Below, in pieces: positions 7,565-59,767 of a stretch of DNA of 64,000 nt. Position 1 is the first letter of the stretch; the number at the start of each line of letters is the position of its first letter. The DNA comes from Patescibacteria group bacterium (lineage in GTDB: Bacteria > Patescibacteriota > Minisyncoccia > Minisyncoccales > Staskawiczbacteraceae): positions 93,537-157,536 of the forward strand of contig JAHJTG010000016.1 of NCBI GenBank assembly GCA_018829965.1. The letters are read 5' to 3'. The position numbers were made by a program, and so were the translations under genes. The notes beneath the pieces are model-generated. The model was not told where the DNA came from and did no database searches. It saw only the letters and a program-made list of their open reading frames with translations.

Positions 7565-8938
7565 ATGACACAAAAATATTACATAATAACTTTCGGCTGC
7601 CAGATGAATGTATCGGATTCGGAAAGAATCGCAGCGGTTTTAGAATCTATAAAATACAAACCTGTTCAGAAAATAGAACCTGCTGATTTGGTTGTAGTAA
7701 ATATGTGTTCTGTGAGACAATCAGCCGTTGACCGAGTTTTTGGTTTAAACCAAAAACTCGTCAAACTCAAAAACCACAACCCACAACTCACAACTATATT
7801 AACTGGCTGTGTTCTAAAAAAAGATGAGAAAAAATTATCCAGATTTTTTGATTACATTATCAATATTAAAGATATTGGAAAACTGCCTAAAATTTTAAGA
7901 AACAAAAATGAGGGAAAAAAAGATTACCTTAGAATAAAACCAGCGCACGTTAATAAATTTTCTGCAATAGTGCCGATTATGACTGGATGTAATAATTTTT
8001 GCGCCTACTGCGTTGTCCCATACACTCGTGGAAAGGAAGTTTCAAGGCCGGCCAAAGATATTATCTGCGAGATTAAAAACTTAATTAAGCGCGGATACAA
8101 AGAAATCTGGCTGATGGGACAAAACGTGAACTCTTACGGAGTTCAACGCGAAACTGATGCGAAACAAAACGCGAAACTGATGCGAAACAAAATAAACTTT
8201 CCTAAATTATTAAAGATGGTAAATAATATTCCAGGAAACTTTTGGATAAGGTTTACCTCTTCCCATCCTAAACCCAGCACTAGGGCAAAGCTCAGTGCTG
8301 GACTAGTCCCGTACCGAAACAAAGTTTCTGGTACGGGGGATTTTTCTTGGAATGAATTAATCAATATTATAGCTAAAGGAGAGAAAATCACCCCCTACCT
8401 TAATCTTCCGGTCCAAGCTGGTGACGATAAGGTTCTGAAAAGAATGAATAGGCCTTATACAATAAAACAATATATAAATATCATTAAGAAAGTCGGAAAG
8501 AAAATTCCTGATATTTGTCTTTCAACAGATATAATTGTCGGCTTCCCCGGAGAAACAAAAAAACAATTTCAGAATAGTGTTAAATTGTTTAAAGAGATAA
8601 ATTACGACATGGCATATATCTCAGAATATTCTCCAAGACCAAAAACAATGTCCGCTAAAATGAAAGACGATATTTCCATAGAAGAAAAATCTGAAAGAAA
8701 AAGAATTCTAAATAATATCTTAAAAGAAACTGCGTTGGGAAAAAACAAACGATACGTCAATAAAGTTGTAGAAGTTTTACCAATGGAATATAAGAACGGA
8801 CTCTTATTTGGTAAATCTTGGCACTATAAAACAGTGAAGTTTAAAGGGAATAAAAACCTGATCGGAAAATTCGTTAAAGTAAAAATTACTAACGCTTTGC
8901 CTTGGATACTGGAAGGAAAAATAGAATATAGAATTTAG
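7565..8938 (+). CDS. miaB: tRNA-i6A37 methylthiotransferase MiaB (radical SAM)
   Basis: N-terminal UPF0004 domain (YIITFGCQMN), CNNFCAYC radical-SAM cluster, C-terminal TRAM domain. Carries two internal repeat insertions. Confidence 0.9.
   Translation: MTQKYYIITFGCQMNVSDSERIAAVLESIKYKPVQKIEPADLVVVNMCSVRQSAVDRVFGLNQKLVKLKNHNPQLTTILTGCVLKKDEKKLSRFFDYIINIKDIGKLPKILRNKNEGKKDYLRIKPAHVNKFSAIVPIMTGCNNFCAYCVVPYTRGKEVSRPAKDIICEIKNLIKRGYKEIWLMGQNVNSYGVQRETDAKQNAKLMRNKINFPKLLKMVNNIPGNFWIRFTSSHPKPSTRAKLSAGLVPYRNKVSGTGDFSWNELINIIAKGEKITPYLNLPVQAGDDKVLKRMNRPYTIKQYINIIKKVGKKIPDICLSTDIIVGFPGETKKQFQNSVKLFKEINYDMAYISEYSPRPKTMSAKMKDDISIEEKSERKRILNNILKETALGKNKRYVNKVVEVLPMEYKNGLLFGKSWHYKTVKFKGNKNLIGKFVKVKITNALPWILEGKIEYRI
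8273..8338 (+). repeat. 66-nt twin-hairpin insertion, in frame inside miaB
   Basis: ccagcact...agtgctgg and cccgtacc(gaaac aaa gtttc)ggtacggg. Splits the conserved SSHPK|DF motif and is translated PSTRAKLSAGLVPYRNKVSGTG. Confidence 0.7.
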
Positions 8939-8970
8939 GATTTAGGATTTAGAATTTAGAATAAAAAATC

Positions 8971-10403: not shown

Positions 10404-11925
10404 ATTTGAGAATATTTTTCAACAATTTTTGAACCATTTCGGGATTAGCTTTGCCTCGGGTTTCTGCTATAACCTTTCCTGCTAAAAACTGCAAAGCATT
10501 CTGTTTTCCTTTTTTAAAGTCGTCTACTGCACTTTGGTTTTTTTCGATTACACTTTTAATCGCTTTTTCAATTTCTTTTTCGTCGCTAATCTGACTTAAG
10601 CCTTTTTCTTCAATAATCTGTGAAGGATCTTTACCAGTTTGCAACATTTGCACTAAAACTTCTTTCGCTGTTTTGCTAGTTATTTTTCCGTCGTTTATAA
10701 GAATTATAAATTCAGAGAAGTCTTCCGGAGTTATCGCGCATTCTTTCTCTGAAAATTGTTCTCCTAATAAGCCTTGTAGGTCTGTAATGATATAATTACT
10801 AGCTAATTTAATTAAAGACTGTTTTTTATCTTTTTTTGCCTCTGTTTCAATCTCGCTGATAACTTTTTCAAAATATTCTCCTAGGTCTTTGTTATCGGTA
10901 AAGATTTCTATAGATTTTGCATCCAAGTCATACTCTTTTTCAAATCTTTTTCTCTTATTCGCCGGCAATTCTGGGATTTCAGCCTGAACGCTGTTTATAA
11001 GTTGTGAGTCCAATATGATAGGTGGTATATCTGGCTCTGGAAAATACCTATAATCATGCGCTTCTTCCTTCTCCCTCTGACTGAATGTCTCCTCTTTGTT
11101 GTCATCCCAGCCACGTGTTTCCTGAATTACTTTTTTCCCGTCGTCTAAAACCTCTGTTTGCCTTTTAATTTCGTAATTAACTGCCTTCTCCGCCGCTTTA
11201 AAAGAGTTTAAATTCTTTATTTCCACCTTTGTCCCGAGTTTAGGATTTTGGACTTTCGATTTTGAATTTGTTTCGGATTTAGAATTTAGGATTTCGGATT
11301 TGAGTGGAAGTAAGCTTATGTTTACTTCGACTCTTAGTTGTCCTTTTTCCATATCAGCATCGGAAACCTCCAGATATCTTAAAATTAATTGCAGCTCCTC
11401 GGCAAAACGTCGTACTTCTAATCCTGATTTCAAATCAGGCTCTGTTACTAGTTCCATTAAGGGCATGCCTGCTCGATTATAATCAACTAAAGAATAGTCC
11501 ACGCCTTTTGGATGTAAAAGACGACCAGTATCTTCTTCTAGGTGTATCCTCGTAATTCTAATTTTCTTTAAATATAACTCTGAAAAATCTTGAGATACTG
11601 GTATTTCTAAAAAGCCTTTTTCACAAAACGGTTTATCATATTGAGAAATCTGATAACCTTTTGGCAAATCTGGATAGAAATAGTTTTTCCTATCAAACTT
11701 TGACTCTTCATTAATCTTGCAGTTTAAAGCTAATCCTGTTTTTACAACTTTTTTTATTGCTTCTTCATTAGCAACCGGAAGCGTCCCCGGGTGCGCCATA
11801 CAAATCGGGCAAATATTAAAATTCGGCTTTTTCTCATCCGGATCGTTCTTACAAGAACAAAACATTTTAGAGTTAGTTTTCAACTCCACGTGTATTTCTA
11901 ATCCTATTGTTGTTTTGTAATTCAT
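10402..11925 (-). CDS. gatB: Asp/Glu-tRNA(Asn/Gln) amidotransferase subunit B
   Basis: MNYKTTIGLEIHVEL, CPICMAHPGTLP, C-terminal GatB/YqeY domain. Contains a heptamer-array insertion at 11239-11301. Confidence 0.93.
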   Translation of the reverse strand: MNYKTTIGLEIHVELKTNSKMFCSCKNDPDEKKPNFNICPICMAHPGTLPVANEEAIKKVVKTGLALNCKINEESKFDRKNYFYPDLPKGYQISQYDKPFCEKGFLEIPVSQDFSELYLKKIRITRIHLEEDTGRLLHPKGVDYSLVDYNRAGMPLMELVTEPDLKSGLEVRRFAEELQLILRYLEVSDADMEKGQLRVEVNISLLPLKSEILNSKSETNSKSKVQNPKLGTKVEIKNLNSFKAAEKAVNYEIKRQTEVLDDGKKVIQETRGWDDNKEETFSQREKEEAHDYRYFPEPDIPPIILDSQLINSVQAEIPELPANKRKRFEKEYDLDAKSIEIFTDNKDLGEYFEKVISEIETEAKKDKKQSLIKLASNYIITDLQGLLGEQFSEKECAITPEDFSEFIILINDGKITSKTAKEVLVQMLQTGKDPSQIIEEKGLSQISDEKEIEKAIKSVIEKNQSAVDDFKKGKQNALQFLAGKVIAETRGKANPEMVQKLLKNILK

Positions 11926-12413: not shown

Positions 12414-12420
12414 ATATTTT

Positions 12421-12507
12421 ATAATTACAAGTGAAGGAGGAATATATGGAAACGAGTTTCTATATATTCCGACCGAACGACTAATTATATAAATTGCGGA
12501 GCAATTT
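12421..12507. repeat. AGCGAGG...CCGAGCGA-family modular hairpin element (variant GTGAAGG...CCGAACGA)
   Basis: ataattacaagtgaaggaggaatatatggaaacgagtttctatatattccgaccgaacgactaattatat, plus a second small hairpin. Confidence 0.7.
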
Positions 12508-13332
12508 CTAAACAGCCATTGGCGCTTTAATCGACGGATGATATTTATAGTCAACCAGCTTTATGTCTTCCATCTTAAAACTAAATATATCTTTTACTTC
12601 TGGGTTCAGCCATAATTTTGGCAAAGGATAAGGCTCTCTCGCCAACTGCTCTTTTACCTGGTCAAAATGATTTAAATAAATATGCGTGTCGCCTAAAATA
12701 TGCACAAATTCCCACGGCTCCAATCCCACAACCTGAGCCACCATATGTAAAAACAATGAATAAGAAGCAATATTAAACGGCACGCCTAAAAATGTATCGC
12801 AACTTCTTTGATACATTAACAAAGACAATTTGCCTTGAACGGAAAAAAAATGGAAAAGTAAATGGCAAGGCGGAAGAGCCATCATATCTAACTCTGCCGG
12901 ATTCCATGAAGACGCAATAATTCTTCTGTCTCCAGAATTTTTTTTCAATTGAGAAATAACATTGCTTATCTGATCTATCGGCACATCAGTATAAGGCGAC
13001 CTCCAGTTTCTCCATTGAACTCCATAAACTCTGCCCAAATCTCCCTCAAACTTTGCTTTTGGCTTCCAATAATCTGCATTAGCATTGCCATCCCAAATAT
13101 GACAACCTAGTTTTTGTAACTCTTTTACATCACTGCTTCCAGATAAAAACCAAAGTAATTCTGCTTTCATTGATTCAAATGCTAATTTTTTTGTTGTCAC
13201 TGCAGGAAAACCGTCTTTCATATTAAATCTCATCGGAACTCCGAAAATAGCTCGAGAACCAACTCCAGTTCTGTCAGGTCTATCAACACCCTCATCCATT
13301 ATTTTTTTTAAAACATCTAAATATTGCTTCAT
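12508..13332 (-). CDS. thyA: Thymidylate synthase (ThyA type)
   Basis: 274 aa. DRTGVG, PPCH (LPPCHLLFHF), DTHIY motifs. Confidence 0.95.
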   Translation of the reverse strand: MKQYLDVLKKIMDEGVDRPDRTGVGSRAIFGVPMRFNMKDGFPAVTTKKLAFESMKAELLWFLSGSSDVKELQKLGCHIWDGNANADYWKPKAKFEGDLGRVYGVQWRNWRSPYTDVPIDQISNVISQLKKNSGDRRIIASSWNPAELDMMALPPCHLLFHFFSVQGKLSLLMYQRSCDTFLGVPFNIASYSLFLHMVAQVVGLEPWEFVHILGDTHIYLNHFDQVKEQLAREPYPLPKLWLNPEVKDIFSFKMEDIKLVDYKYHPSIKAPMAV

Positions 13333-13401: not shown

Positions 13402-14106
13402 TTATATTAATTTTTTTAAAAAAATTAATATTTTTTGATTTATTATTTCCGGTGACAATAACTCACTTTTATCCAAACATTCCACAACTTTAAAATCCTT
13501 TGGAAATTCTTTCGCTGCCGTTAAATAAGAATTAAGAGCGTTTTTTAAATGACTTCTGTCTTTTTCGTGTATATCTTGTTTTTTACTACTTCCCAAATAA
13601 GCTTTTCTTCTGTTTTGTTTATCTTTATCTGTTATGTTGTGTGCTAGCTTTAAAGAAAACTCTGGTGACGTTTTCAAAATAAACGTACAATCCGGCTTTG
13701 GTATTTTAAAAATATTATATTCTAAATTATACAACCAATTTACATATTTCTTCCATTCTTTTTTGCTTTTTATCTTTCCTCCTTGATGCCCAATATTTGA
13801 AACTAAATACCTGTCCGAAATAACAATCTTGCCTTCGTTTAACCATTTTTTAATTTTAAAACTAGCGTCATATCTATCACAAGCATAAAAAATAGAGGGA
13901 ACATAAGCCCCCACTTCTTCTGAGCTCCCGTATTTACCTGTTAAGTAATCATCTACTAATGCCGAGGATCTTTCTCCATGTTGTGGAAAATCAATTTTTT
14001 CTACTTTATATCCTTTATCTTTAAAATACTCAATCGCCAATTTTGCCTGAGTGGCTTTGCCACACCCATCAATTCCCTCGAAAACAATAAATTTTCCTTT
14101 TTTCAT
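13402..14106 (-). CDS. tmk: Thymidylate kinase
   Basis: FIVFEGIDGCGKATQ P-loop, DRY motif (SDRYLVS). Confidence 0.85.
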   Translation of the reverse strand: MKKGKFIVFEGIDGCGKATQAKLAIEYFKDKGYKVEKIDFPQHGERSSALVDDYLTGKYGSSEEVGAYVPSIFYACDRYDASFKIKKWLNEGKIVISDRYLVSNIGHQGGKIKSKKEWKKYVNWLYNLEYNIFKIPKPDCTFILKTSPEFSLKLAHNITDKDKQNRRKAYLGSSKKQDIHEKDRSHLKNALNSYLTAAKEFPKDFKVVECLDKSELLSPEIINQKILIFLKKLI

Positions 14107-14198
14107 AATTATGAGCGAGGAAGGGATATATGGAAACTCGTTTCCATATATTCCGACCGAGCGATTAACTATATAAACGGCTTCGCCGTTTATATAGT
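14105..14198. repeat. AGCGAGG...CCGAGCGA modular hairpin element (best-preserved copy)
   Basis: ataattatgagcgagg-aagggatatatggaaac-tc-gtttccatatattcc-gaccgagcga-ttaactat, then the perfect hairpin actatataaacggc-ttc-gccgtttatatagt. Confidence 0.75.
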
Positions 14199-15841: not shown

Positions 15842-15908
15842 AGTTTAGGTTTTAGGTGTTAGGGTTTAGGGTCTAGTTAATTATACGCTAAACGCTATAC
15901 CTTATACG

Positions 15909-16334
15909 CTATTCGCTTATTTCAATACCCATATTCTTGGCCGTACCTGCAATAATCTTCATTCCTTGCTCAACATCATTAGTATTCAAGTCTTCTAATT
16001 TCTTCTGGGTTATTTCTCTTAATTGGGCTTTTGTAATCTTGCCAACTTTTGTTTTATTCGGAGAACCAGAGCCTTTTTCAATCCCAGCTGCTTTTTTCAA
16101 TAATTCTGATGCTGGTGGCTTTTTTAATTTAAAGGTGTAAGTTCTATCAACATAAATTGTGACTTCTACTGGAATAATAAAACCGGCTTGGTCTTTTGTG
16201 GCATCATTAAATTTCTGACAGAATTCAGAAATATTCAAACCATGAGTAGCTAAAGCTGGTCCTACTGGAGGAGCTGGGTTAGCTTTTGCAGCTTGTATCT
16301 GAAGTTTTACTATAGCTTTTACTTGCTTTGGCAT
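15909..16334 (-). CDS. rplK: 50S ribosomal protein L11
   Basis: [35 protein letters not shown]. Start moved to the second Met of the ORF. Confidence 0.93.
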
Positions 16335-17017: not shown

Positions 17018-17149
17018 AAACTCTAAATTCTAAGCTCTAAACTCTAAACAATATCAAAACTCTAAATTCAAATAATTAAAACGTTTTTAGATTTTGAATA
17101 TTTAATATTTGGATTTATTTAGGATTTAGGATTTGGGATTTAGGATTTT
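17018..17149. repeat. Arm-inverted heptamer arrays (CTCTAAA-type arm, then TTTAGGA-type arm) forming a ~130-bp imperfect palindrome
   Basis: Left arm 17018-17074, right arm 17084-17149. Fills the secE-nusG spacer. Confidence 0.7.
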
Positions 17150-18139: not shown

Positions 18140-20779
18140 TTATATATCTAAGTTCTTTACCGTCTTTGCATGAGTCTGGATAAATTTCTTTCTTGGCTCT
18201 ACCTCTTCGCCCATTAAAATATCAAAAATTTTATCTGCCTCTCTGGCGGTATCAATTGTAACCCTTAATAATAATCTATTTTGAGGATTCATTGTTGTCT
18301 CCCAAAGCTGTATTGAATCCATTTCTCCCAAACCTTTATATCGTTGGATAGAAATACTTTGATTTTTATTAACTGTTTTCAAAAGCTTCTCTTTTTGTTC
18401 GTCGTTATAGACATGCTTTATTTCTCTGCCAATCTGTATTTTATAAAGCGGTGGCTGAGCGATATAAATATATCCAGCGTCAACCAATGGTCTGAAGTGA
18501 CGATAGAAAAGAGTTAAAAGTAATGTCCTAATATGGGCGCCATCAACATCAGCATCAGTCATAATAATAACTCTATGATATCTTAGTTTTTCTATATTAA
18601 AATCTTCGCCAATCGCTGTCCCTAGAGCAATAACCAAAGCTCTTATCTCTTTTGAATCCAACATTTTGTCCAAACGAGCCCTTTCCACATTTAGAATCTT
18701 GCCTCGTAAAGGTAAAATCGCTTGAAAATGCCGGTCTCTTGCTTGTTTTGCGCTATTATGAACAAAAACCCCCGATGCCAATGCAAAGTTATGAGTATTC
18801 TTAACTTCTAAATCATAAACATCTACCCTTTCTTTCAATTTAACTATTCTTTTAATTTTATGGTTATAGCTTGAAACTGTTTGTTCTAATACTCTTTCTT
18901 TTCTAAAACATTCTTTATGAAAAGGCATTAAAGAATCTTCTGTTTTTAAGTCTTTTGCCATTTTGTAATTTCCGCCCCTCAACATAAACTTGTGATCTGG
19001 CGTACAAATCATCTCTTCGTCATTATCTAAAACAACTTTAATAACTTCTGCGTTTTCTTTTGTTTTTCTTGGATTATCAATTGGCTCGATTCCAACACTA
19101 CCGTCATTTTTAATTGTATAACAATAATTCTTCTTTCCTTGTTTATGTTCTTCAACCAAATTTTCAAAAGATAAGTTTCTTCCATCAGCTAAAGCAACTT
19201 CAGTTTTTCCAAACCAACAACCACCGGCACTCTCTCCTTCGACGATATACAATTCTGATTCTTCTGGTTTTCTTGAAAGACAATCTGCAAGTTTTCCAGG
19301 CAACGCTAATCCTTCTAATACTCCTTTTCTTAAAACTGTCTGACGAGCGCTTTTTGCCGCTTGCCTGGCTTTTGCCGCCAATAAACAGTTTTCAACAATT
19401 CCTTTAGCATCTGATGGGTAACGTTCTAAATAATCGCTTAAACCTTCTGCCACAGCTGTCTCTACGGCGTTTTTGGCTTCTGGGTTTCCTAATTTTGCTT
19501 TTGTCTGGCCCTCAAATTGAGGATTCCTTATTTTTACAGAAATTACTGAAGTTAATCCTTCTCTTACGTCTTCACCTGAAAGATTTTCATCTTTTTCTTT
19601 TAAGTATCCTTCCCTTCTAGCATAATCATTTAATGACCTCGTTAAAGCCGCCCTAAAACCAGTTAAATGAGTGCCTCCTTCTGGAGTATAGATATTATTG
19701 GCAAAACTTTCTTCAATGCATTCCATCTCTTGGGTATATTGAAAAGCTGCTTCAACTGCGATTTCGTTTTTTGTAGTAGCTATGCTGAAAACATTAGGAT
19801 TTCTTGGTGTATTCCCAGTAGTTAAATATTTTACGTAAGAAGCCACTCCCCCTTCAAAATAAAAGGCGTAGCTAAATTTCTCTTTAGAATTTCTTTCATC
19901 TGAAAAAGAAATCCTAACCCCCTTAGTAAGATAAGCCTGTTGGCGTAAATGATTTAGAATCTTCTTAGAATCAAATTTTATCTCTTTAAAAATATCTGGA
20001 TCTGCTTGGAAAGTAACAGTGGTTCCTGTCTTTCTGCAAGCTCCTATTTTTTTAACCGGAGACTTTACATCACCCTTAGCATATTCCTGCATATACAAAC
20101 CGCCATCTCTGCAAACTTCTGCTCTCATTTGAATAGACAATGCGCAAACAACAGAAACGCCGACACCATGCAAGCCTCCAGATACCTGATATGCTTTACT
20201 ACCAAATTTACCACCAGCATGTAAAACCGTCATTACAGTTTCTAATGCTGATTTTTTAGTTTGAGAATGTTTTTCTACTGGAATGCCTCTGCCATCATCA
20301 GAGACTTTAACCAAATTGTCTTGCAAAAGAGAAACCTCTATATTTTTACAATGACCAGCCATCGCTTCATCCAAGCTATTATCAATAACCTCCCAAATTA
20401 AATGATGAAGACCATCCAAACCAGTTGAGCCAATATACATTGCTGGTCTTTTTCTTACCGCCTCAAGACCTTTTAAAACATAAATATCTTTAGCTGTGTA
20501 TTCGTCCTTTCCTGTTTTTTCTTTTAAAGGCTTCTCGTCTCTCACTGTCTCAATAACCTCTTTTTCTACTTTAGTTTGTCTTGTTTTAGTTTTAATAGAT
20601 TCAACCTTAGTCGGTTTAACTTTAGCCACAACAGCTTTCTTGACTATTTTTTCAGCTTTTGGTTTCTTCTTTCCCTCACCTGCAACGCTATGCCAGCCCG
20701 CAGTAGATACAGCGTTTCTGGCGGGCGAAACATTGCGGGCAGGTTCTTTTATCTCTCTTATTTTTATTTTTATAGCCAT
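18140..20779 (-). CDS. gyrB: DNA gyrase subunit B, interrupted by a mini-intein. The long Lys-rich 5' extension is of uncertain translation.
   Basis: VLKGLEAVRKRPAMYIG, GGLHGVG, EGESAGG|intein|SAKQARDR, Toprim and C-terminal motifs. Possible alternative GTG start at 20545. Confidence 0.9.
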   Translation of the reverse strand: MAIKIKIREIKEPARNVSPARNAVSTAGWHSVAGEGKKKPKAEKIVKKAVVAKVKPTKVESIKTKTRQTKVEKEVIETVRDEKPLKEKTGKDEYTAKDIYVLKGLEAVRKRPAMYIGSTGLDGLHHLIWEVIDNSLDEAMAGHCKNIEVSLLQDNLVKVSDDGRGIPVEKHSQTKKSALETVMTVLHAGGKFGSKAYQVSGGLHGVGVSVVCALSIQMRAEVCRDGGLYMQEYAKGDVKSPVKKIGACRKTGTTVTFQADPDIFKEIKFDSKKILNHLRQQAYLTKGVRISFSDERNSKEKFSYAFYFEGGVASYVKYLTTGNTPRNPNVFSIATTKNEIAVEAAFQYTQEMECIEESFANNIYTPEGGTHLTGFRAALTRSLNDYARREGYLKEKDENLSGEDVREGLTSVISVKIRNPQFEGQTKAKLGNPEAKNAVETAVAEGLSDYLERYPSDAKGIVENCLLAAKARQAAKSARQTVLRKGVLEGLALPGKLADCLSRKPEESELYIVEGESAGGCWFGKTEVALADGRNLSFENLVEEHKQGKKNYCYTIKNDGSVGIEPIDNPRKTKENAEVIKVVLDNDEEMICTPDHKFMLRGGNYKMAKDLKTEDSLMPFHKECFRKERVLEQTVSSYNHKIKRIVKLKERVDVYDLEVKNTHNFALASGVFVHNSAKQARDRHFQAILPLRGKILNVERARLDKMLDSKEIRALVIALGTAIGEDFNIEKLRYHRVIIMTDADVDGAHIRTLLLTLFYRHFRPLVDAGYIYIAQPPLYKIQIGREIKHVYNDEQKEKLLKTVNKNQSISIQRYKGLGEMDSIQLWETTMNPQNRLLLRVTIDTAREADKIFDILMGEEVEPRKKFIQTHAKTVKNLDI
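18755..19219 (-). mobile_element. Mini-intein (155 aa, no endonuclease domain) in the GyrB EGDSAGG-SAKQGRD site
   Basis: Starts CWFGKTEV (Cys1), block B TPDH, ends GVFVHN followed by Ser+1. The exteins rejoin to the conserved EGESAGGSAKQARDR. Confidence 0.85.
20676..20742. repeat. GC-rich palindromic element type B (core tgccagcccgcagtagatacagcgtttctggcgggcg)
   Basis: The 37-bp core at 20691-20727 is 35/37 identical to 53807-53843. Outer stem acctgc/gcaggt. Confidence 0.75.
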
Positions 20780-20842: not shown

Positions 20843-22048
20843 TTAACGCAATGTAGCTCCCAAGTCCTGTTTAGTCTTTTCCCTAATTTCTTCTTGAATT
20901 TTATTTATCTCTTCATTTGTCAGCGTTCTTTCTGGCGAACGATAAACAATCCTGAACGTATAGCTCTTCTTGTCTTTTCCAAACTTACTTTCATCTTCGT
21001 ATTCGTCAATTAATTTCACCTCTTCAATAATTCCAACATTTGAATTTTCTGTCCCGACGGCTCTGCCGTCGAGGATCCTCGATGACGAAGTCATCGGGAC
21101 AAAATCTCTTACAATTTCGTAATAATTATTCAAATTTATATTTTTGTCTATCACAAAAGAAATATCTCTTGAGGTTTCCGGATACTTGCTTACTTCTTTA
21201 TACTTGCTATTAATATCTTTAAATTGGCTGGTAATTCTTAGGTCATCCGACCAAAGAACTCTAATATCTGGTATTCCCATTTTTACCATTGCTAACCTAT
21301 CTATCCCGAAGCCGAAAGCCCAGCCATTGTAAACTTCCGGATCTAAACCAAAATTCTTCAAAACCTGCTTATGAACAAGTCCCGACCCAACAACTTCCAT
21401 CCATTGCTCACCCAACTTAATATCCATCTCTACTGACGGATCCGTAAAAGGGAAAGAGTCAACGATAAACTTATGCTCAACCTTTTCTCCAAAGATACTT
21501 TTTCCGATATCGGCTAAAATATCTTTCAAATCTTCTAGGGTGATAACTTTTTGGTCTTTTTTGCAAATATATAGTCCGTCTATTTGATGAAAGGCAGGAA
21601 AATGATTTTTATCAATTTCATCTTTGCGGAAAACTATTCCAGTTGATAAAGCCCCAACACTCCCCTTTTCTTTTAATCTTTTAAAAATCTCAGGATCTCT
21701 TAAATAAAAAGGCCACATAACTGTTGTCTGCGTTCTTAAAACATATTCGTCTGTAAGGTAATAGGTATCTGTTTCTCTGCGACTCGGGTGGCCTTCTGGA
21801 GTATTTAAAACATCGAAGTTCTCTTCTAATGTAACCACTCTAGGAAAATCGACTAAATCAAAATCAGCAAATCTTGACAATTTTATTATCTGATTAGCTA
21901 AAATCTTTACAGGAGAATTCTGCTTCTTTGTAAGGTCAGGAAGGTTTAATAATTTTTTGATTCTCTCTGCTTTAATATCTTTCCTCTTCCCCAACTCCTC
22001 AATAATAGCGCCTTCTTTAGAGTTTTCTATTACGATATTTTTACGCAT
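20843..22048 (-). CDS. pheS: Phenylalanine--tRNA ligase, apparent single-chain type: PheS catalytic core fused to a C-terminal FDX-ACB (anticodon-binding) domain
   Basis: Motif 2 FRKDEIDKNHFPAFHQIDG. Motif 3 GWAFGFGIDRLAMVKMGIPDIRVLWSDDLR. C-terminus YPETSRDISFVI...KSYTFRIVYRSPERTLTNEEIN. Confidence 0.85.
   Translation of the reverse strand: MRKNIVIENSKEGAIIEELGKRKDIKAERIKKLLNLPDLTKKQNSPVKILANQIIKLSRFADFDLVDFPRVVTLEENFDVLNTPEGHPSRRETDTYYLTDEYVLRTQTTVMWPFYLRDPEIFKRLKEKGSVGALSTGIVFRKDEIDKNHFPAFHQIDGLYICKKDQKVITLEDLKDILADIGKSIFGEKVEHKFIVDSFPFTDPSVEMDIKLGEQWMEVVGSGLVHKQVLKNFGLDPEVYNGWAFGFGIDRLAMVKMGIPDIRVLWSDDLRITSQFKDINSKYKEVSKYPETSRDISFVIDKNINLNNYYEIVRDFVPMTSSSRILDGRAVGTENSNVGIIEEVKLIDEYEDESKFGKDKKSYTFRIVYRSPERTLTNEEINKIQEEIREKTKQDLGATLR
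21051..21100. repeat. GC-rich palindromic element type A, in frame inside pheS
   Basis: gtcccga-cggctctgccg-tcgaggatcctcga-tgacgaagtca-tcgggac. Translated VPMTSSSRILDGRAVGT. Confidence 0.8.
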
Positions 22049-25869: not shown

Positions 25870-26035
25870 AACGCGCCCAGTGCTTTGCCCGTCCGTAGCT
25901 TTAGCGAAAGAGGGCTTTGTCCTGCCGTAGTTTTAACGAAGGCGGAGGACGCAGTTCCCTGCCCGCAATGCTAAAGCATAGCTTTTGCAGACGGGGAACT
26001 TGGTTTTGGGAAAACTTCCCAGTGGTAGAACCGAA
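25870..26035. repeat. Array of four GC-rich hairpins, two with the GCTAAAGCTACGG-type loop
   Basis: gcccgtccgtagctttagcgaaagagggc, gtcctgccgtagttttaacgaaggcggaggac, agttccct...ggggaact, gggaactt...aacttccc. Confidence 0.6.
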
Positions 26036-30542: not shown

Positions 30543-30830
30543 CCCACGACGGGATTTGAATTAAAAATAATCGGGAAAAGTTCTGAAATACTTTTACCCC
30601 TCTAAAATATGCCTGTTTTCAGAACCGTCAAAATAAGTTTAAAACAGGCGATTTTCGTCTACTTATTCCGTCGTGCGCGGGCGACGGGCCTCCTTTGCTA
30701 AAGCTACGGACGGCCAAAGGATTTGAATAACGGGTTCATTCACCCACCACAACAACACATAAAAATAAAATGCCCACGAGGGGCATTTATTTTTATGCGC
30801 CCGCGTGAGGATTTGAACCGGACGGGTCAC
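30543..30830 (-). other. Cluster of three decayed tRNA 3'-end-like fragments (integration scars)
   Basis: 30543-30575, 30669-30750 (tgcgcgggcgacggg...atttgaataacggg, split by a hairpin insertion) and 30796-30830. Compare the tRNA-Asp 3' end tgcgcgggtgacgggatttgaacccg. Confidence 0.55.
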
Positions 30831-35390: not shown

Positions 35391-37319
35391 TTACTGCCTG
35401 CTCTTAAATATCTCCAAGAATGCCCGATGGGAGATTTCAACCCTCCCCTTCTCCTTTAATAGCTTTTTTCCTTTCTTCTGTTTCTCTAAAAGTTTTCTTT
35501 TTCTTGTCACATCTCCTCCGTATAGATAACCGGTGACATCCTTTCTTCTGGCCCTGATTGTTTCACGGGCTAAAACCTTGCCTTGAACTACTGCCTGCAA
35601 AGCAACTGAGAATTGTTCCGGAGGCAAAACATCTTTTAATTTTTCTACCAAAAACTTTCCTTCCCTATATGCTTCGTCTTCGGAAACAATCTTTGAAAAC
35701 GCTTCTTCTGAGTGTCCTGCAATCCAAATTTCCATTTTTACCAAATTACCTGGCCTAAAACCTAAAACCTTATAGTTCATTGAAGCATAACCTTGGCTTA
35801 CGCTTTTTACTTTATCGTAAAGATTGCTAATAATCCCGCGCAAAGGCACTTCATAAATAATAATTGCCCTATCTTGGCCAAAATATTGGGTATCAACATA
35901 GATTCCTCCGGTATTTTTTAAAATATCAGAAAGCTTGCTTATGTAAACACTCGGGGTAATAAGCTCTAAAGACACCCAAGGCTCTTCAGTTTTTTGGATA
36001 AAGGTAGCATCCGGCCAATCCGAAGCTGAATAGATAAATTCTTCTTTGCCCTTTTGATTAAAGATTTTATAAACAACCGATGGCGTTGAAATCACTAGAT
36101 TAAGACCGAATTCTCTTCTTAGTCTTTCAGAAGCAATCTCAACGTGTAAAGTACCTAAAAATCCGCATCTGTATCCTCTGCCTAAAGCTTCTTTTGTTTC
36201 GGGCTCAAATATAAAAGATGGGTCGCTTAACTTTAGTTTTGCCAATGCGTCTTTTAATAAATCAAAGTCGCCAGCATCCTGCGGATAAAAACTGGCAAAA
36301 ACCATTGGTCTTGGTTCTAGATAACCATGCAGGGGTTGGATTTCAGAGGCTTTTAATTTAAACTGCTGGCTTGAAACAATTGTATCGCCGACCCTTACCT
36401 TGCCTGGCTCTTTAATTCCTGTAGCAATATATCCGATTTCACCTGCTGAAATCTTTCCTTGAGCAACAGGTCCTGGCATAAAATATCCTATTTCTTTTAT
36501 CTCTGCTTCAGTATTCGTAACCATCAACCTTACTCTCTCGCCTGCGTTAATTTCACCATCAACAACTCTGATAAAAGCAATGACTCCTTTATAGGCATCA
36601 TAATCTGAATCAAAAATTAAAGCCCTAAAAGGTTTTTGAGTATTTATTTCTGGAACAGGAACTTCTTCAATAATTTTACTTAAAAGAGTATCTACATTAG
36701 CTCCTGTTTTCCCAGAGATTCTAAGAATTTTCTCCGGATCAATGCTTAAAAGATTAGCGATTTCTAAAGCGCTTTCTTCAATTCTGGCATCTGGCGCATC
36801 TATTTTATTCACCACAGGAATTATTACTAAATTTTGTTGTTTAGCCAACTCTAAATTAGCTAATGTCTGGGCTTGAATGCCTTGAGTGGCATCAACCAAT
36901 AAAACTGCTCCTTCAACTGCAGCCAAAGCTCTTGAAACTTCGTAGGAGAAATCAACGTGGCCTGGAGTATCTACCAAGTTCAAAACATATTTTAAACTTG
37001 GAAACTCTAAATTCGAAGCACTAAATTCTAAACTATTGGTTTCGGATTTTGGGTTTTGGGTTTTGGGTTTATTTAGAATTTCGGATTTAGGATTTAGGAT
37101 TTGCGAATGATATATCATTCGTACTGGTTTAAGTTTAATTGTAATCCCCTTTTCTCTTTCTAAGTCCATTCTATCCAAAAACTGCGGTTTCATTTTACCC
37201 GGCTTTACCGCTCCAGTTATTTCTAAAAATCTATCGGCTAAGGTAGATTTCCCATGGTCAATATGGCTAATAATTACAAAATTACGTATATTCTCCTGCA
37301 TATTTATATTTTTTACCAA
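35391..37319 (-). CDS. lepA: Elongation factor 4 (LepA)
   Basis: NFVIISHIDHGKSTL, DTPGHVDF, NKID, LepA C-terminal domain. Contains a ~37-codon heptamer-array insertion. Confidence 0.93.
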   Translation of the reverse strand: MVKNINMQENIRNFVIISHIDHGKSTLADRFLEITGAVKPGKMKPQFLDRMDLEREKGITIKLKPVRMIYHSQILNPKSEILNKPKTQNPKSETNSLEFSASNLEFPSLKYVLNLVDTPGHVDFSYEVSRALAAVEGAVLLVDATQGIQAQTLANLELAKQQNLVIIPVVNKIDAPDARIEESALEIANLLSIDPEKILRISGKTGANVDTLLSKIIEEVPVPEINTQKPFRALIFDSDYDAYKGVIAFIRVVDGEINAGERVRLMVTNTEAEIKEIGYFMPGPVAQGKISAGEIGYIATGIKEPGKVRVGDTIVSSQQFKLKASEIQPLHGYLEPRPMVFASFYPQDAGDFDLLKDALAKLKLSDPSFIFEPETKEALGRGYRCGFLGTLHVEIASERLRREFGLNLVISTPSVVYKIFNQKGKEEFIYSASDWPDATFIQKTEEPWVSLELITPSVYISKLSDILKNTGGIYVDTQYFGQDRAIIIYEVPLRGIISNLYDKVKSVSQGYASMNYKVLGFRPGNLVKMEIWIAGHSEEAFSKIVSEDEAYREGKFLVEKLKDVLPPEQFSVALQAVVQGKVLARETIRARRKDVTGYLYGGDVTRKRKLLEKQKKGKKLLKEKGRVEISHRAFLEIFKSRQ

Positions 37320-44508: not shown

Positions 44509-44544
44509 AATAATTTTAATTTTCAATTCCCAATTTTCAATTTT

Positions 44545-44587
44545 TCCCGACTTCGTCGAGGATCCTCGATGGCTTCGCCATCGGGAC
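44545..44587. repeat. GC-rich palindromic element type A, intergenic copy
   Basis: tcccga-cttcgtcg-aggatcctcga-tggcttcgcca-tcgggac. Confidence 0.8.
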
Positions 44588-44617
44588 AATGAATTTTTAA
44601 TTATCTAATCTTCAAAA

Positions 44618-53658: not shown

Positions 53659-54231
53659 TTATAGTCTTTCCACAATTTTTAATTCTACACTATCCTTCTC
53701 CGTATCATAAACAGCGAAAGTTGGCTTAAAGATTTGACCTGCAGCTTCACCGGGGTTAATTAATAAGCATCCTTTTTCTTCCCCGCTCGCAACGCTTCGC
53801 TTCGCTTGCCAGCCCGCAGTAGATACAACGTTTCTGACGGGCGTAGCGATGCGGACGAGCCATGGCTTATGAGTATGGCCGTAAAAAACTATATCGTATT
53901 TTCCTGATTCGGCTAATTGTTTAGCCGGCTCTAATTTATGGATAACAGCTATTTTTTTACCGTCTAATTCTATTTCCAAGGGTTCTTGAACAACTTTGAT
54001 TGTCGACGGATTTTGATATTCCTCTATCCTTATATCCCAATCTTTATCCATATTGCCAAAAATCCCAAGAAATTCTCCTTTGAAATTTGCCAAAGACTCC
54101 TTCAATGATTCCGGGCTGCCGATATCGCCGCAATGCAAAATAGTCTTTATATTTTCTTTGTTTACCCATTCAACAATTTTTTTAAAAGTTGCAGTATTAC
54201 CGTGAGTATCAGAAATAATTACGATTTTCAT
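53659..54231 (-). CDS. Metallophosphoesterase (YfcE/MJ0936 family) with an in-frame repeat insertion
   Basis: MKIVIISDTHGN, HCGDIG, GNMD, GHTHKP...INPG. Confidence 0.8.
   Translation of the reverse strand: MKIVIISDTHGNTATFKKIVEWVNKENIKTILHCGDIGSPESLKESLANFKGEFLGIFGNMDKDWDIRIEEYQNPSTIKVVQEPLEIELDGKKIAVIHKLEPAKQLAESGKYDIVFYGHTHKPWLVRIATPVRNVVSTAGWQAKRSVASGEEKGCLLINPGEAAGQIFKPTFAVYDTEKDSVELKIVERL
53781..53860. repeat. GC-rich palindromic element type B, in frame inside the phosphoesterase gene
   Basis: Core 53807-53843. Translated RIATPVRNVVSTAGWQAKRSVASGEE between the conserved GHTHKP and INPG motifs. Confidence 0.8.
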
Positions 54232-54235
54232 CGTA

Positions 54236-54478
54236 TTATTTAATATATTTAAATCTTGGAACTTTTTTACCACCAATTTCTACCTTTTCTAAAAACATTT
54301 TAAGCGGTCTAACCCAAAGCTCGCCGTCGCCCCTCATCCGCTTGCGAGCTTCGGACGGACAAGCATAAAGCGATTTATAGACAACTAATTCTTCTAAGGT
54401 TTCGCTATGTTTGGCAGTGCCTAAAACCTCGTAATTATTCCCTTTAAAATGCTGGTAAATTCCTGTTTTGATTTCCAT
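54236..54478 (-). CDS. DUF1653-domain protein
   Basis: GIYQHFKGNNYEVLGTAKHSETLEELVVYKSLY...LWVRP. Confidence 0.7.
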   Translation of the reverse strand: MEIKTGIYQHFKGNNYEVLGTAKHSETLEELVVYKSLYACPSEARKRMRGDGELWVRPLKMFLEKVEIGGKKVPRFKYIK

Positions 54479-55086: not shown

Positions 55087-57576
55087 TTATTTTCCATGGC
55101 AGTGTTTGTACTTTATCGGACGACCATCTTCATGCTTCGCTCCGCATGGACAAGGATCATTTCTGCCAACTTCTCCTTTAGGTTTTGGTGCCTGCCCGCC
55201 TAAATGCGACGGCTTTTGGCGGGTTAATTCAGCTTTTAAAATATTATTAGCAATAGCAATCTCTGTCTCTTCTAAAAATCTTTGGAACATTCTTCTCCCC
55301 TCTCTTTTATATTCTATCAACGGATCCTGCTGGCCGTAAGCCCTTAATCGCACGGAATCCCTTAAATAATCCATATCTTCCAAATGTTCTATCCAATAAG
55401 TGTCTAAAACTCTAAGAGAGACAAATTTTAGAATTTGCTCCATATTCTCTTTGCCGATTTCTTTTTCTTTCTTATTATAATCCTCTTCTGTAAATCCAGC
55501 CTTTTTAATAATCTCTAAAATATATTCTTTTAAATTATTTTGGTCATTGGTTATTGGGGTTTGTCCCGCGAAGCGGGATCCCGTCTCGCGGGAGGATTTT
55601 TCTAGTATCTCTTTTCTCTTTTTATAAAATACCTCTCGGTGTTTATTCATTACCTCGTCGTATTCTAAAATATGTTTTCTGGAGTCAAAATGAAACCCCT
55701 CAACTTTTTCTTGGGCTGAAGCGATTGCTTTTGAAATCATTCCTGATTCTATTGGCTGGTCTTCTGGAATATTAAAAGTATTCATTATGTTCTTTATCCT
55801 GTCCCCGCCGAAAACTCTCATCAAATCGTCTTCTAAAGACACGAAAAACTGGGAAGAGCCGGGGTCTCCCTGCCTGCCAGACCTTCCTCGCAACTGGTCA
55901 TCAATTCTTCTTGCTTCGTGCCTTTCTGTGCCAATAACGTGAAGCCCGCCTGCTTCTATAACTTTCTTCTGCTCTTCCAAGTCCGGCGGATTCCCCCCCA
56001 AGATTATATCCACGCCTCTTCCTGCCATATTAGTAGCAATGGTTACAGCTCCAAGTTTTCCTGCTTGAGCAATAGTTTCAGCTTCTTTCTCATGATTCTT
56101 GGCATTTAAAATCTGGTGCCGAATCCCCTCTCTTTCTAATAGTTTCCCCAAAAACTCATTCTTTTCAATTGAAACCGTTCCGACTAAAACTGGCTGGCCT
56201 TTTTTATTCCTTTCTTTGATTTCGTTCACAACCGACTTAAACTTTCCTTCAATAGATTTATATACCCTATCTGGTAGATATTCTCTTATAAGTGGCTTAT
56301 TCGTAGGGATAGAAACGACTTCTAATTTATATACTTTATCAAATTCTTCGGCAGAAGTCTGGGCAGTGCCGGTCATACCAGATAGTTTTTTATACATCCT
56401 AAAATAGTTTTGAAAAGTAATTGTTGCCCATGTTTTTGATTCCTCCTGAACATCAACTCCTTCTTTGGCCTCAACTGCCTGATGCAGACCCGCAGACCAG
56501 CGACGGCCAGGCATTAACCTGCCGGTAAATTCATCTACGATTATAACCTTCCCGTCTTTTACAACATAATTTTTATCTTTTTGAAATAATGTTTTTGCTT
56601 TTAGAGCTGATTCTAATTGATGAATCGTCGTAATGTCGCTATCTAACCAAGGGTCGGAACCAAGGCTTTTTATCATTTTTACCTGACCCTGTTCAGTAAA
56701 AGTAGCTACTCTTAATTTCTCGTCTAATTCATAGTCTTCTTTTTCTTGTAAGCCTATTACTAATTTCGCAAATTGATAATATTTTCCGGTCGGCTCCCCG
56801 CCTGGAGAAGAAATAATTAAGGGGGTTCTTGCCTCATCAATTAAAATAGAGTCTATCTCATCAACAATCGCATAGTTATGACCCCGCTGGGATTGCTCTT
56901 GCAAGCTATGAACCATATTATCTTTTAAATAATCAAAGCCGAATTCATTGTTCGTGCCATAAGTAATGTCAACTGAATACGCTTCTTTTCTGGAAACCGG
57001 CCTTAAGAAGTCTTCCATGACCTTAAAGCTTCCTATCGAGTCTCTAATTTTATCTTCTGTCTCTTCTGCTTTCTTATATCCAGAATCATAGACAAAAGAT
57101 TGTTCGTGATTCAAACAACCTACTGTCAAGCCAAGAAAATGGTATATCTGGCCCATCCAAACAGTGTCTCTTCTTGCTAAATAATCATTGACCGTAATAA
57201 TATGAACGCCCTTTTCAGTTAAGGCATTTAAGTAAGCTGACAAAGTAGCGGTTAATGTTTTTCCTTCTCCTGTTTTCATTTCTGCAATTTGGCCTTGGTG
57301 TAAAACAATGCCACCGATCATTTGAACGTCAAAATGACGTTGTGAAAGTACTCTTTTTGATGCCTCGCGGACTACGCCAAAAGTCTCTGACAATAAATCG
57401 TCCACTGTTTTCCCATTAGCTAATTGTTCTTTAAACTCTTTAGTCTTATTTCTTAATTCCTCATCAGAAAGCTTTTGAAGAGCTGCTTCAAAAGAGCCTA
57501 TTTCAGCAATTATTGGGTCTAGTTTTTTTAGATTTTTCTGATGGACATCACCGAAAATCTTTGTGAAGATTGACAT
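55087..57576 (-). CDS. secA: Preprotein translocase ATPase SecA
   Basis: MKTGEGKTL, DEIDSILIDEARTPLIIS, TNMAGRGVDI, C-terminal zinc motif CPCG...HCHG. Confidence 0.95.
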   Translation of the reverse strand: MSIFTKIFGDVHQKNLKKLDPIIAEIGSFEAALQKLSDEELRNKTKEFKEQLANGKTVDDLLSETFGVVREASKRVLSQRHFDVQMIGGIVLHQGQIAEMKTGEGKTLTATLSAYLNALTEKGVHIITVNDYLARRDTVWMGQIYHFLGLTVGCLNHEQSFVYDSGYKKAEETEDKIRDSIGSFKVMEDFLRPVSRKEAYSVDITYGTNNEFGFDYLKDNMVHSLQEQSQRGHNYAIVDEIDSILIDEARTPLIISSPGGEPTGKYYQFAKLVIGLQEKEDYELDEKLRVATFTEQGQVKMIKSLGSDPWLDSDITTIHQLESALKAKTLFQKDKNYVVKDGKVIIVDEFTGRLMPGRRWSAGLHQAVEAKEGVDVQEESKTWATITFQNYFRMYKKLSGMTGTAQTSAEEFDKVYKLEVVSIPTNKPLIREYLPDRVYKSIEGKFKSVVNEIKERNKKGQPVLVGTVSIEKNEFLGKLLEREGIRHQILNAKNHEKEAETIAQAGKLGAVTIATNMAGRGVDIILGGNPPDLEEQKKVIEAGGLHVIGTERHEARRIDDQLRGRSGRQGDPGSSQFFVSLEDDLMRVFGGDRIKNIMNTFNIPEDQPIESGMISKAIASAQEKVEGFHFDSRKHILEYDEVMNKHREVFYKKRKEILEKSSRETGSRFAGQTPITNDQNNLKEYILEIIKKAGFTEEDYNKKEKEIGKENMEQILKFVSLRVLDTYWIEHLEDMDYLRDSVRLRAYGQQDPLIEYKREGRRMFQRFLEETEIAIANNILKAELTRQKPSHLGGQAPKPKGEVGRNDPCPCGAKHEDGRPIKYKHCHGK

Positions 57577-59681: not shown

Positions 59682-59767
59682 GTGTCCCGACTTCGTCGAG
59701 GATCCCCGATGGTTCCGACTTTGTCGAGAATCCTCGACTTTGTCGGGACTTCGCCATCGGGATTAGT
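59682..59767. mobile_element. Nested or double GC-rich palindromic element type A, flanked by a 13-bp perfect direct repeat
   Basis: tattagatgttgg occurs at 59669-59681 and 59768-59780. Interior: gtcccgacttcgtcgaggatcc...ttccgactttgtcgagaatcctcgactttgtcgggac...ttcgccatcggga. Confidence 0.75.

Follow-up and report, generated by a model that had tools for sequence, protein, structure and literature searches.

A dispersed palindromic repeat of the REP/RPE kind, probably read through in frame within a monomeric phenylalanyl-tRNA synthetase of Patescibacteria

In a 64,000-nucleotide stretch of a Patescibacteria contig (Staskawiczbacteraceae, assembly GCA_018829965.1, contig JAHJTG010000016.1, positions 93,537 to 157,536; hereafter the window), the gene for a monomeric, mitochondrial-type phenylalanyl-tRNA synthetase (PheRS) contains a GC-rich palindromic element at 21051..21100. 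We consider it probable that this 50-bp element is a member of a dispersed repeat family of the same kind as repetitive extragenic palindromic (REP) sequences and Rickettsia palindromic elements (RPE), that it entered PheRS once, that it is read through as a tolerated loop, and that it was later exchanged between alleles.

The element lies on the minus strand. Read on the coding strand, this copy (c1) is GTCCCGA-TGACTTCGTCA-TCGAGGATCCTCGA-CGGCAGAGCCG-TCGGGAC and encodes VPMTSSSRILDGRAVG(T); on the forward strand it is GTCCCGA CGGCTCTGCCG TCGAGGATCCTCGA TGACGAAGTCA TCGGGAC, as a whole GTCCCGACGGCTCTGCCGTCGAGGATCCTCGATGACGAAGTCATCGGGAC. The first-pass annotation of this DNA had reported 50 bp with a 7-bp outer stem and three inner palindromes, and the sequence is exactly so: a perfect, GC-rich multi-hairpin palindrome of 50 nt, in a window with a G+C content of 35%. 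It is no chance feature, because its 14-nt core is found four times in the window versus 0.08 expected (two mismatches or fewer), because c1 folds with z-scores of -4.6 as DNA and -4.9 as RNA (the four window copies range from -3.4 to -5.2), and because a covariance model built on copies from other genomes gives exactly three strong window matches, all with E < 1e-7 (21050-21101, 44543-44588 and 59683-59750).

The interrupted gene (20843..22048, minus strand) is an intact ORF of 401 aa, as expected from the claim that the frame is kept, with Pfam matches to tRNA-synt_2d (aa 38-276) and FDX-ACB (aa 337-401). Pfam, structure alignment and AlphaFold together place the FDX-ACB anticodon-binding domain at about aa 292-401 (20846..21175, minus strand). 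The gene had been named pheS; it encodes a monomeric PheRS and not the classical pheS alpha subunit, and the solved structures closest to it are human mitochondrial PheRS chains (5mgu, 3cmq). These chains lack residues at the insert position and align there with a gap, in agreement with the statement that mitochondrial-type PheRS runs straight through. The window protein is 100% identical to a Patescibacteria MAG (metagenome-assembled genome) protein, on a contig of up to 250 kb.

In order to place the insert among orthologs, we compared the best 120 homologs of the window protein. The site is empty in 105 of them, including the closest (P0004, 88% identical), with five residues F-A-E-N-L between ...YYEIVRD and IEEVK. 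Ten homologs have FVPMT(S/K)SSRILDG(K/R/E)AVGTEN(F/S)(V/I)P(I/M), or the window's ...ENSNVGI; a shortened form is present in one and a different insert, FVPPQRDPA.GGTEVP, in three, and one homolog was unmatched by the site search pattern. Since 105 of the 120, the closest one included, run through the site, close orthologs do not all carry a homologous peptide, and the segment is an insertion rather than an ancestral peptide.

The same insert at the same codon was found in at least ten distinct PheRS protein clusters (nine full-length, one shortened) from NCBI, JGI, ENA and Logan assemblies. One insert-bearing cluster was found on 40 contigs, and a copy of the family outside PheRS is present in L095, a genome record without a MAG tag. 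As many independent assemblies from four sources agree, the PheRS insert is not an assembly artefact, a possibility that the first-pass annotation had raised. We give almost no credence to an artefact, or to removal of the segment before or during translation, whether by intron-like excision or by ribosomal bypass, of which the GC-rich 'byp' inserts of yeast mitochondria are an example. The very stable hairpin that the element forms in mRNA (-33.6 kcal/mol) would suit such removal, but all allele lengths are multiples of three and free of stop codons, which would be needless if the segment were removed or bypassed.

The addition to the protein is composed of two blocks. The window PheRS is 20 residues longer than the 381-aa orthologs, at the upper end of the 17-20 residues first estimated; these were not a single segment, however, as 16 codons (317-332, 48 nt) come from the element and four from a second small in-frame block, CAAATGTTGGAA (SNVG; 21031..21042, minus strand), which the alignment of filled and empty DNA shows to be missing from empty-site orthologs. 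On the coding strand, this 12-nt block lies downstream of the element, at a distance of 8-9 nt; its counterpart in other insert-bearing orthologs has 9 nt (TTTGTACCA or TTTATTCCA) and is similar to the left junction, TTTGTCCCG. From empty to filled, GATTTC-GCS-GAAAAY-TTR-ATT becomes GATTTT-G[TCCCGA...TCGGGA]CA-GAAAAYT-[9 or 12 nt]-ATT. Among PheRS alleles, the element block measures 48, 42 or 33 nt and the net change at the second block is 12, 9 or 3 nt, every one a multiple of three, and the insert alleles have no stop codons. The reading frame was kept because 48 nt without a stop codon were added, and the intact ORFs with lengths in multiples of three suggest that the element is translated.

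The position in the protein is consistent with tolerance. In an AlphaFold2 model of the window PheRS (78 homologs, mean pLDDT 87.8), residues 317-336 are the sole segment below pLDDT 50, and they lie between helix 307-315 (helix 1) and strand 341-350 (strand 2) of the ferredoxin-fold FDX-ACB domain, so that the interruption of this domain, as originally proposed, is seen in the model. The model supports an extra flexible surface loop in the anticodon-binding domain, which is what the structural check suggested for this sequence had looked for; the protein would tolerate the insert as a flexible protrusion of the loop between helix 1 and strand 2.

The history of the PheRS copy can be read from its arms and its surroundings. 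The exact arm pair (TGAC...GTCA, CGGC...GCCG) has 6 matches in 241 million metagenome records, all at the same PheRS codon. As this arm set is confined to PheRS, the element allele (INS1) arose once and was not reseeded from other copies; a recent hop from the intergenic copies of the window into PheRS was rejected on the same ground, since their arms differ. Third codon positions of different alleles agree at 36-64% in the flanks, compared with 94-100% over the 48-51 nt of the insert. The differences within the insert are confined to two hairpin loops, one of them a clean inversion (TTC vs GAA), and no change is seen in the stems, while third codon positions on either side have reached saturation. 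The sequence just downstream of the insert, second block included, has diverged freely, which makes the allele an old one. Because the stems are intact, only loops change and one loop is inverted, constraint or repair probably acts on the DNA hairpin itself, in addition to constraint on the protein.

This pattern also bears on the idea that the loop is an adaptive, lineage-specific feature of PheRS (for example, a new contact with tRNA or a partner), in which the peptide is selected and the palindromic DNA incidental. The peptide VPMT(S/K)SSRILDG(K/R/E)AVGT is indeed near-identical in orthologs that are 72-81% identical overall, a shortened INS1 and another insert (INS2) occupy the same site, and the site is within the tRNA-binding domain of mitochondrial PheRS (PDB 3TUP). 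However, conservation reaches third codon positions, which implies constraint on DNA and not on the peptide alone, and the variable residues are only those that come from hairpin loops. Moreover, the nearest relatives are among the 105 orthologs without insert, the model gives the insert no confident structure, and the same family is present in more than 20 unrelated proteins. An adaptive loop is very unlikely on this evidence.

More than one element has been found at the PheRS site. The shortened INS1 is 42 nt long, has one core mismatch and lacks the second block, and INS2, GTCCCGCCACAGCGGGATCCCGCAGAAGGCGGGAC (33 nt; L129 10925-10975 and L130 10922-10972), is a subfamily-2 element at exactly the same codon. 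INS2 is followed by AGAA-GTCCC, in which GTCCC, at the position of the second block, can pair with the 3' GGGAC arm of the element. A second same-site case is seen in Mur ligase orthologs (L004 7217-7256, L027 3083-3122, L072 6194-6233), where orientation, arms and frame all differ; this suggests a re-used landing site or an inversion in place.

Repeated occupation of a site, as in PheRS and the Mur ligases, would be explained by a site-specific, homing-like element, with a nuclease or recombinase acting in trans to refill the empty PheRS site. The sporadic distribution with empty sister alleles and the small palindrome formed by the empty PheRS site itself would fit such homing as well. We regard it as highly improbable: the INS1 alleles share unique arms and the second block, indicating one event, and divergence of the sequence around and between the blocks resembles that of neutral DNA, as in old alleles that were not re-created. 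Furthermore, no associated nuclease gene was found, and most copies of the family are at unrelated sites.

Filled and empty alleles are intermingled. In a neighbour-joining tree with the insert masked, insert-bearing PheRS proteins fall in at least eight places, each beside empty-site sisters; the deep branches of this tree are short, and only close pairs carry weight. The best such pair is L001 (filled) and L002 (empty), which are syntenic, mostly 90-100% identical per 60-nt window, and about 96% identical overall in the shared gene region. Precise excision as the origin of the empty L002 allele is unlikely, as it needs two deletions plus substitutions to restore the ancestral TTCGCGGAAAACTTG. 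Because the empty allele is not derivable by simple deletion, allele replacement by homologous recombination, in either direction, is probable, and exchange of this kind is the most likely cause of the scatter of filled and empty alleles. An old allele of single origin would then have come to stand beside empty alleles in many lineages, and breakage provoked by the hairpin may have promoted its replacement. Mosaic PheRS sequences were considered as proof of recombination and are a hint only: P0005 and P0008 have identical C-termini, and P0003 and P0016 are 95% identical in one half and 76% in the other, P0016 being encoded on L123, possibly a chimeric contig.

Two further copies in the window are intergenic. 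Copy c2 (44543..44588) has the three-way form (T)TCCCGA-CTTCG-TCGAGGATCCTCGA-TGGCTTCGCCA-TCGGGAC; it lies between a putative pgk, named from its ORF sequence, and a DHH/DHHA1 (RecJ-like) gene, and is adjoined by a heptamer array, (AATTTTC)x4.9, at 44512-44544. Copy c3 (59684..59762), a composite, contains several hairpin units and two cores of one mismatch each; its neighbours are the genes for a ribosome hibernation factor and for a pyruvoyl arginine decarboxylase, and a 12-nt direct repeat, ATTAGATGTTGG, stands on both sides of it. These two had been annotated, at 44545-44587 and 59682-59767, as near-identical to the PheRS element. They are members of its family, with core and outer arms in common, but their inner arms are different (86% and 61% identity, respectively, over 36 nt). 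A further element belongs to a second subfamily, with the centre CGGGA|TCCCG: it is a doublet, GTCCCGCGAAGCGGGA|TCCCGTCTCGCGGGA (centre CGGGATCCCG; 55563..55593, minus strand), in frame in secA with the peptide SSRETGSRFAGQ, and INS2 in the PheRS genes of other genomes has the same design.

In order to define the family, we scanned one genome per GTDB species with the pattern TCGAGGATCCTCGA-N(4-12)-TCGGGAC. At least 119 stretches matched, and 114 full elements could be extracted from the matches listed, with arm-length classes (11,5), (11,11), (5,11) and (5,5). The common plan is (G)TCCCGA, a variable arm, TCGAGGATCCTCGA, a variable arm or a 5-nt mini-hairpin, and TCGGGA(C). The arms are mostly 11 nt (4-bp stem, 3-nt loop) or 5 nt (one closing pair, 3-nt loop) in length. 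Outer arms and the 14-bp core are near-invariant; the inner arms are free in sequence yet self-complementary, and among the matches listed, 142 of the 156 arms of 9 nt or more, which comprise 106 distinct sequences, have a terminal stem that is perfect over 3 bp or more. In 25 three-way copies, all four arm pairs and the closing pair of the mini-hairpin change on both sides; 97% of the cells in this covariation analysis are paired, with almost no G-U, and the scores are above those of 500/500 shuffles and of every slid control.

The two outer arms are complementary to one another and also, with one bulged base, to the halves of the core. The minimum-energy fold of the DNA is two tandem bulged hairpins and that of the RNA is a long hairpin, and single units TCCCGAC-loop-GTCGGGA exist. 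Given the DNA fold, the single units and the centre of the second subfamily, the element is most readily interpreted as a head-to-head pair of REP-like hairpins, [TCCCGA-arm-TCG(A)GGA][TCC(T)CGA-arm-TCGGGA], with GGATCC as the junction. As single-stranded DNA or RNA it can form two bulged hairpins or a small cloverleaf or cruciform. A cloverleaf as the sole fold is not supported, in view of these minimum-energy folds and because covariation backs only the self-pairing of the arms. Rfam 15 gave only RNase P and two tRNAs in the window at gathering thresholds, and only chance microRNA-type matches in eight loci at E <= 1. Hairpin singlets were also seen in tandem, in a Bacteroidales MAG (L050, 47-254), where TCCCGACCTAAAGTCGGGA is repeated three times with a spacing of about 95 nt.

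The family comprises more than 100 copies across many classes of Patescibacteria and on genuine Bacteroidota contigs. Host records include Saccharibacteria, Yanofsky-, Staskawicz-, Wildermuth-, Lipton-, Magasanik- and Sungiibacteria and Paceibacterota, and, within Bacteroidota, Bacteroidales, Rikenellaceae and Draconibacterium MAGs. Two element contigs are truly from Bacteroidota, as one (Rikenellaceae MAG) also encodes a TonB-dependent receptor and the other (Bacteroidales MAG) a protein with a type IX secretion system (T9SS) sorting domain. Some low-GC MAGs recorded under the label Gammaproteobacteria also have copies. Pattern matches inside conserved genes of high-GC actinobacteria were dismissed as chance. 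A scan of viral contigs with the family pattern gave zero matches, so that there is no sign of a phage vehicle.

Occurrence of the same unit between genes and within them, which the first-pass annotation had likened to RPE, is seen in the window (one coding and two intergenic copies) and extends well beyond it. Outside PheRS and Bacteroidota, 36 of 87 listed copies (about 40%) lie within ORFs that extend for 40 aa or more in both directions, and by a second ORF criterion 42 of 106 listed copies are within ORFs. All 25 of the 25 ORFs outside PheRS that were scanned with Pfam are real conserved proteins. They include GyrA, PNPase, IleRS, SecA, RpoC, LeuRS, PolX, UvrA, DnaK, ATP synthase alpha/beta, a PilB-like ATPase, several Mur ligases, a class II aminoacyl-tRNA synthetase, glycosyltransferases, GalT/HIT, pol III delta', O-antigen ligase, UvrC and MurB. 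All three stop-free frames are in use (SR..RGSS..SGQ, VP..SRILD..VGT and PD..IEDPR..RD), and the purine-rich loops are on the sense strand in 28 of 36 orientable coding copies. A protein-database search with the four open-frame peptides of the element scored nothing, the queries being too short for the E-value scale.

Bacteroidota copies differ in this respect, as 0 of 19 among the matches listed are in ORFs. Of the listed non-Bacteroidota copies, 69 of 87 (79%) have a length divisible by three, versus 3 of 19 (16%) of the listed Bacteroidota copies; the events in these counts are not independent. We also considered stop-codon avoidance as an adaptation in Patescibacteria and rejected it, since the Bacteroidota copies, none of them coding, are equally stop-poor; being common to both groups, stop-poorness is a property of the sequence.

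Insertion sites were compared wherever an empty allele was available. When empty, the PheRS site reads TTTCG^C(C)GAAA, a short palindrome rich in AT; one element entered PheRS at this palindrome, and a target duplication was not detected there. In a DEAD-box helicase, the filled allele in L075 differs from the empty one in L035 by a net gain of exactly 48 nt, located at G^CAMAAA, again with no duplication. In both coding sites with an empty allele, the net gain is the element, placed between G and CA(A/C)AAA. The base before the element (-1) is G in 65% and the base after it (+1) is C in 82% of listed copies, a bias that is partly forced by the search pattern.

Heptamers are frequent companions of the element. 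The 7 nt before TCCCGA equal the 7 nt after TCGGGA, with at most one mismatch, in 16 of 103 listed copies versus 0.8% of random pairings, and this signal is seen at k=7 and zero offset only. Many of these copies are located in tandem heptamers such as (CAAATTC)n, and element flanks show a specific lag-7 autocorrelation. In the window itself, period-7 AT-rich arrays (ATTTAGG, TAGAATT, AATTTTC, TTGAAAC and others) are the prevailing kind of tandem repeat, at about 24 TRF rows; besides the array next to c2, examples are at 3801-3832, 8922-8962, 11239-11301, 15843-15917, 17018-17148, 37038-37102 and 61000-61031. Across spacers, the arrays of the window often face each other as inverted pairs. Comparable heptamers lie beside elements in many genomes, and within Mur ligase, IleRS and SecA they are even part of the translated sequence. 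They may be preferred targets or footprints of insertion and excision. Our best guess is that the elements are mobilised in trans by an enzyme acting on hairpin DNA, of the HUH/Y1 type as for REPs, or by another transposase.

Several observations weigh against our interpretation of a mobile repeat that was inserted, tolerated and exchanged. A Y1-transposase-like ORF was not found among 3989 ORFs in about 1 Mb of loci, which is a weak test, and a search of approximately 1 Mb turned up no longer element that shares these ends. Pairs of ends 150-5000 bp apart with matching flanking 7-mers do occur; two of the nine (L075 and L035) were inspected and enclose ordinary, non-transposase genes, so that such pairs were taken as chance rather than as long elements. 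The evidence for target duplication is ambiguous, many copies being located in heptamer arrays whose period alone gives flanking 7-mers. Evidence for recombination is indirect, and the sole mosaic contig, L123, is from the same metagenome as the near-identical L127 and may be a chimera. Finally, the 14-bp core and the 7-bp arms are near-invariant across phyla and the PheRS stems are perfectly preserved, an invariance greater than expected for a decaying selfish insertion, which leaves room for a function at the level of the host.

Such a function could be a nucleic-acid signal selected by the host, either a cruciform or palindromic site to which a dimeric protein binds or a signal in structured mRNA, kept wherever the element lands; candidates for the recognizing partner are nucleoid, topoisomerase, recombination or DNA-uptake factors. 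A signal of this kind would account for the invariance in both Patescibacteria and genuine Bacteroidota copies, for arms that covary so that hairpins are kept, and for PheRS stems that remain unchanged next to saturated synonymous sites. It would also account for the persistence of the PheRS copy with no active family nearby, as this copy is the only one of the family seen around PheRS in ten related genomes (130 kb), a further point that is difficult for a mobile repeat. On the other hand, presence or absence of the element differs between genomes that are about 96% identical, and copy density is very uneven, with 14 of the listed loci in one MAG and none in 20 kb in others. The proteins that contain elements are unrelated, as are the positions within them, and all three open frames are used; intergenic copies show no bias in orientation relative to flanking genes (14 vs 12), and the scarcity of G-U pairs speaks against a function at the RNA level. 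We therefore think a host-selected signal unlikely and retain the dispersed REP/RPE-like repeat as the explanation of the PheRS insert.

A bolder version of this explanation is possible, though we hold it only tentatively. The copies in Patescibacteria and Bacteroidota may belong to a single family that is still active and is served by a conserved enzyme recognizing hairpins or cruciforms; the elements would be coding-compatible in Patescibacteria, given the difference in multiple-of-three lengths (79% vs 16% of listed copies), the heptamers would be footprints of insertion and excision, and old copies would be repaired. If this is true, repeated insertion into the loops of essential proteins is a general source of lineage-specific insertions, and the perfect upkeep of old coding copies means that the hairpin is still recognized and repaired.

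The genomes of Patescibacteria are about 1 Mb in size, gene-dense and usually called streamlined. In these genomes, a multicopy palindromic repeat is tolerated in RpoC, GyrA, SecA, DnaK, Mur ligases and several aminoacyl-tRNA synthetases, so that the Rickettsia story recurs in a second, unrelated group of reduced genomes. The element offers a source at the DNA level for some lineage-specific protein insertions in Patescibacteria and a marker for strain-level presence/absence polymorphism and recombination, and in PheRS it marks a permissive loop of the anticodon-binding domain. It also calls for caution in the annotation, alignment and phylogeny of 'universal' marker genes. The identity of the core across phyla makes the protein that mobilises or recognizes it worth finding.

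Other features of PheRS and of the window were recorded in passing. Monomeric, mitochondrial-type PheRS in these Patescibacteria consists of the catalytic core and FDX-ACB and has thousands of database homologs; a literature search found nothing that combines monomeric PheRS with the Candidate Phyla Radiation. A small tRNA_bind (PF01588) gene is located directly upstream of PheRS in L001 (3562-3960) and L002 (3615-4016). The GyrB encoded beside PheRS has 879 aa in the window versus 717-752 aa in L129 and L130, and the window gyrB contains a mini-intein (Pfam Intein_splicing; approximately 18755-19195, residues 529-675) inside the Toprim region.

A second, unrelated GC-rich repeat, TGCCAGCCCGCAGTAGATACARCGTTTCTGRCGGGCG, is found at 20691-20738 (N-terminal part of gyrB) and 53807-53854 (metallophosphoesterase ORF 53659..54276); its two copies are 88% identical, are in frame in both genes and encode ...VSTAGW.... 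The Metallophos_2 domain with this repeat has 179 residues versus a profile of 153 positions. A repeated intergenic module at 39609-39860 and 44666-44822 consists of 54-nt tandem units, AAACTGTTAAGCGAGG..., a GC-rich palindrome, GCATGG(T/C)TTCGCCGATTGGCG(A/G)CCGCAAC...ACCGGGTGTTGCGGAG, and a conserved tail of 59 nt, the two sites being 80-90% identical. Spacers at 12417-12510 and 14101-14194 have a 94-nt palindromic unit, GGAATATATGGAAAC/GTTTCCATATATTCC (78% identical), and the 31-nt GC-rich pair CTTTGCCCGTCCGTAGCTTTAGCGAAAGAGG at 25883-25913 and 30689-30719 is 90% complementary.

Our literature searches on palindromic repeats, REPs and miniature transposable elements with inverted repeats (MITEs) in Patescibacteria, Saccharibacteria, Parcubacteria and the Candidate Phyla Radiation yielded no description of such elements, in keeping with the view that they are uncharacterized in genomes of this type. 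RPE-like behaviour is supported, and the likeness to RPE, reportedly described by Ogata and colleagues in 2000 and 2002, is one of behaviour. As in Rickettsia, a multicopy palindrome of a small, AT-rich, reduced genome is found both between genes and in frame in functional, essential genes, as a tolerated extra surface segment. RPE-1 is about 100-150 bp in length, whereas the present elements are 36-50 bp, are from other phyla and cross phylum boundaries, and even in an old coding copy their DNA palindrome has remained perfect.

In architecture, the family has more in common with short REP head-to-head dimers than with RPE-1. Its units, TCCCGA-arm-TCG(A)GGA, are paired in inverted orientation, as the imperfect palindromic REP units of 20-40 nt commonly are, and singlets also exist. 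An unpaired 5' GTAG/CGTC was not found; CGTC is present only where an arm starts with C-G, and it is then paired. The stem TCCCG.../...CGGGA also recalls that of Neisseria dRS3, which is ATTCCC-N8-GGGAAT. According to the REP survey of Di Nocera et al. (2013; PMC3733652), a CGTC-tagged super-family includes Neisseria dRS3 and Rickettsia RPE-4 and RPE-6, has members in five phyla including Bacteroidetes and no dedicated transposase, and has an 8-9 bp stem starting with A-T pairs, a 4-5 nt loop and a CCA tail. In the same survey, intragenic head-to-head dimers are described as encoding about 20-30 residues, often in replication or repair genes, and some dimers as lying within small palindromes. 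The present family resembles these REPs in its short GC-rich units, head-to-head dimers (two hairpins or a cruciform), in-frame copies, presence in Bacteroidetes, insertion into a small palindrome and the lack, in the loci searched, of a linked transposase. It differs in that it has neither the unpaired GTAG/CGTC tag nor the CCA tail, its units abut with an invariant 14-bp core, a bulged A/T is conserved, the loops are of 3 nt instead of 4-5 nt, and the stem starts differently.

MITEs offer a third comparison, among them Correia/NEMIS and, in Coxiella, MITEs through which proteins gain residues (PMC5896051; reviewed in PMC10969869). Like these, the present elements are non-autonomous and multicopy, have terminal inverted repeats (GTCCCGA/TCGGGAC), are sometimes read through and, in a minority of copies, are accompanied by 7-nt direct repeats. 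Unlike MITEs, they are far shorter than the usual 70-300 bp and lack a target duplication at both coding sites with an empty allele, and no full-length parent insertion sequence with the same ends was found in about 1 Mb, with two of nine end pairs inspected. An intein or homing element does not fit either, as 48 nt are too short for an enzyme, the lengths are multiples of three and splicing motifs are not present.

The GC clusters and double-hairpin elements of fungal mitochondria are short GC-rich palindromes in an AT-rich genome that are occasionally in frame. The present family is like them in that GC-rich palindromes spread in a very AT-rich genome, some of them in frame; it differs from them as they are organellar, have no sequence relationship to it and owe their mobility to mitochondrial recombination. 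We file the family as the same kind of element as REP and RPE, probably set apart from those families by tag, tail and abutting units. Its unusual features are the invariance of its sequence across phyla, the covarying arms, the lengths in multiples of three and the heptamer companions.

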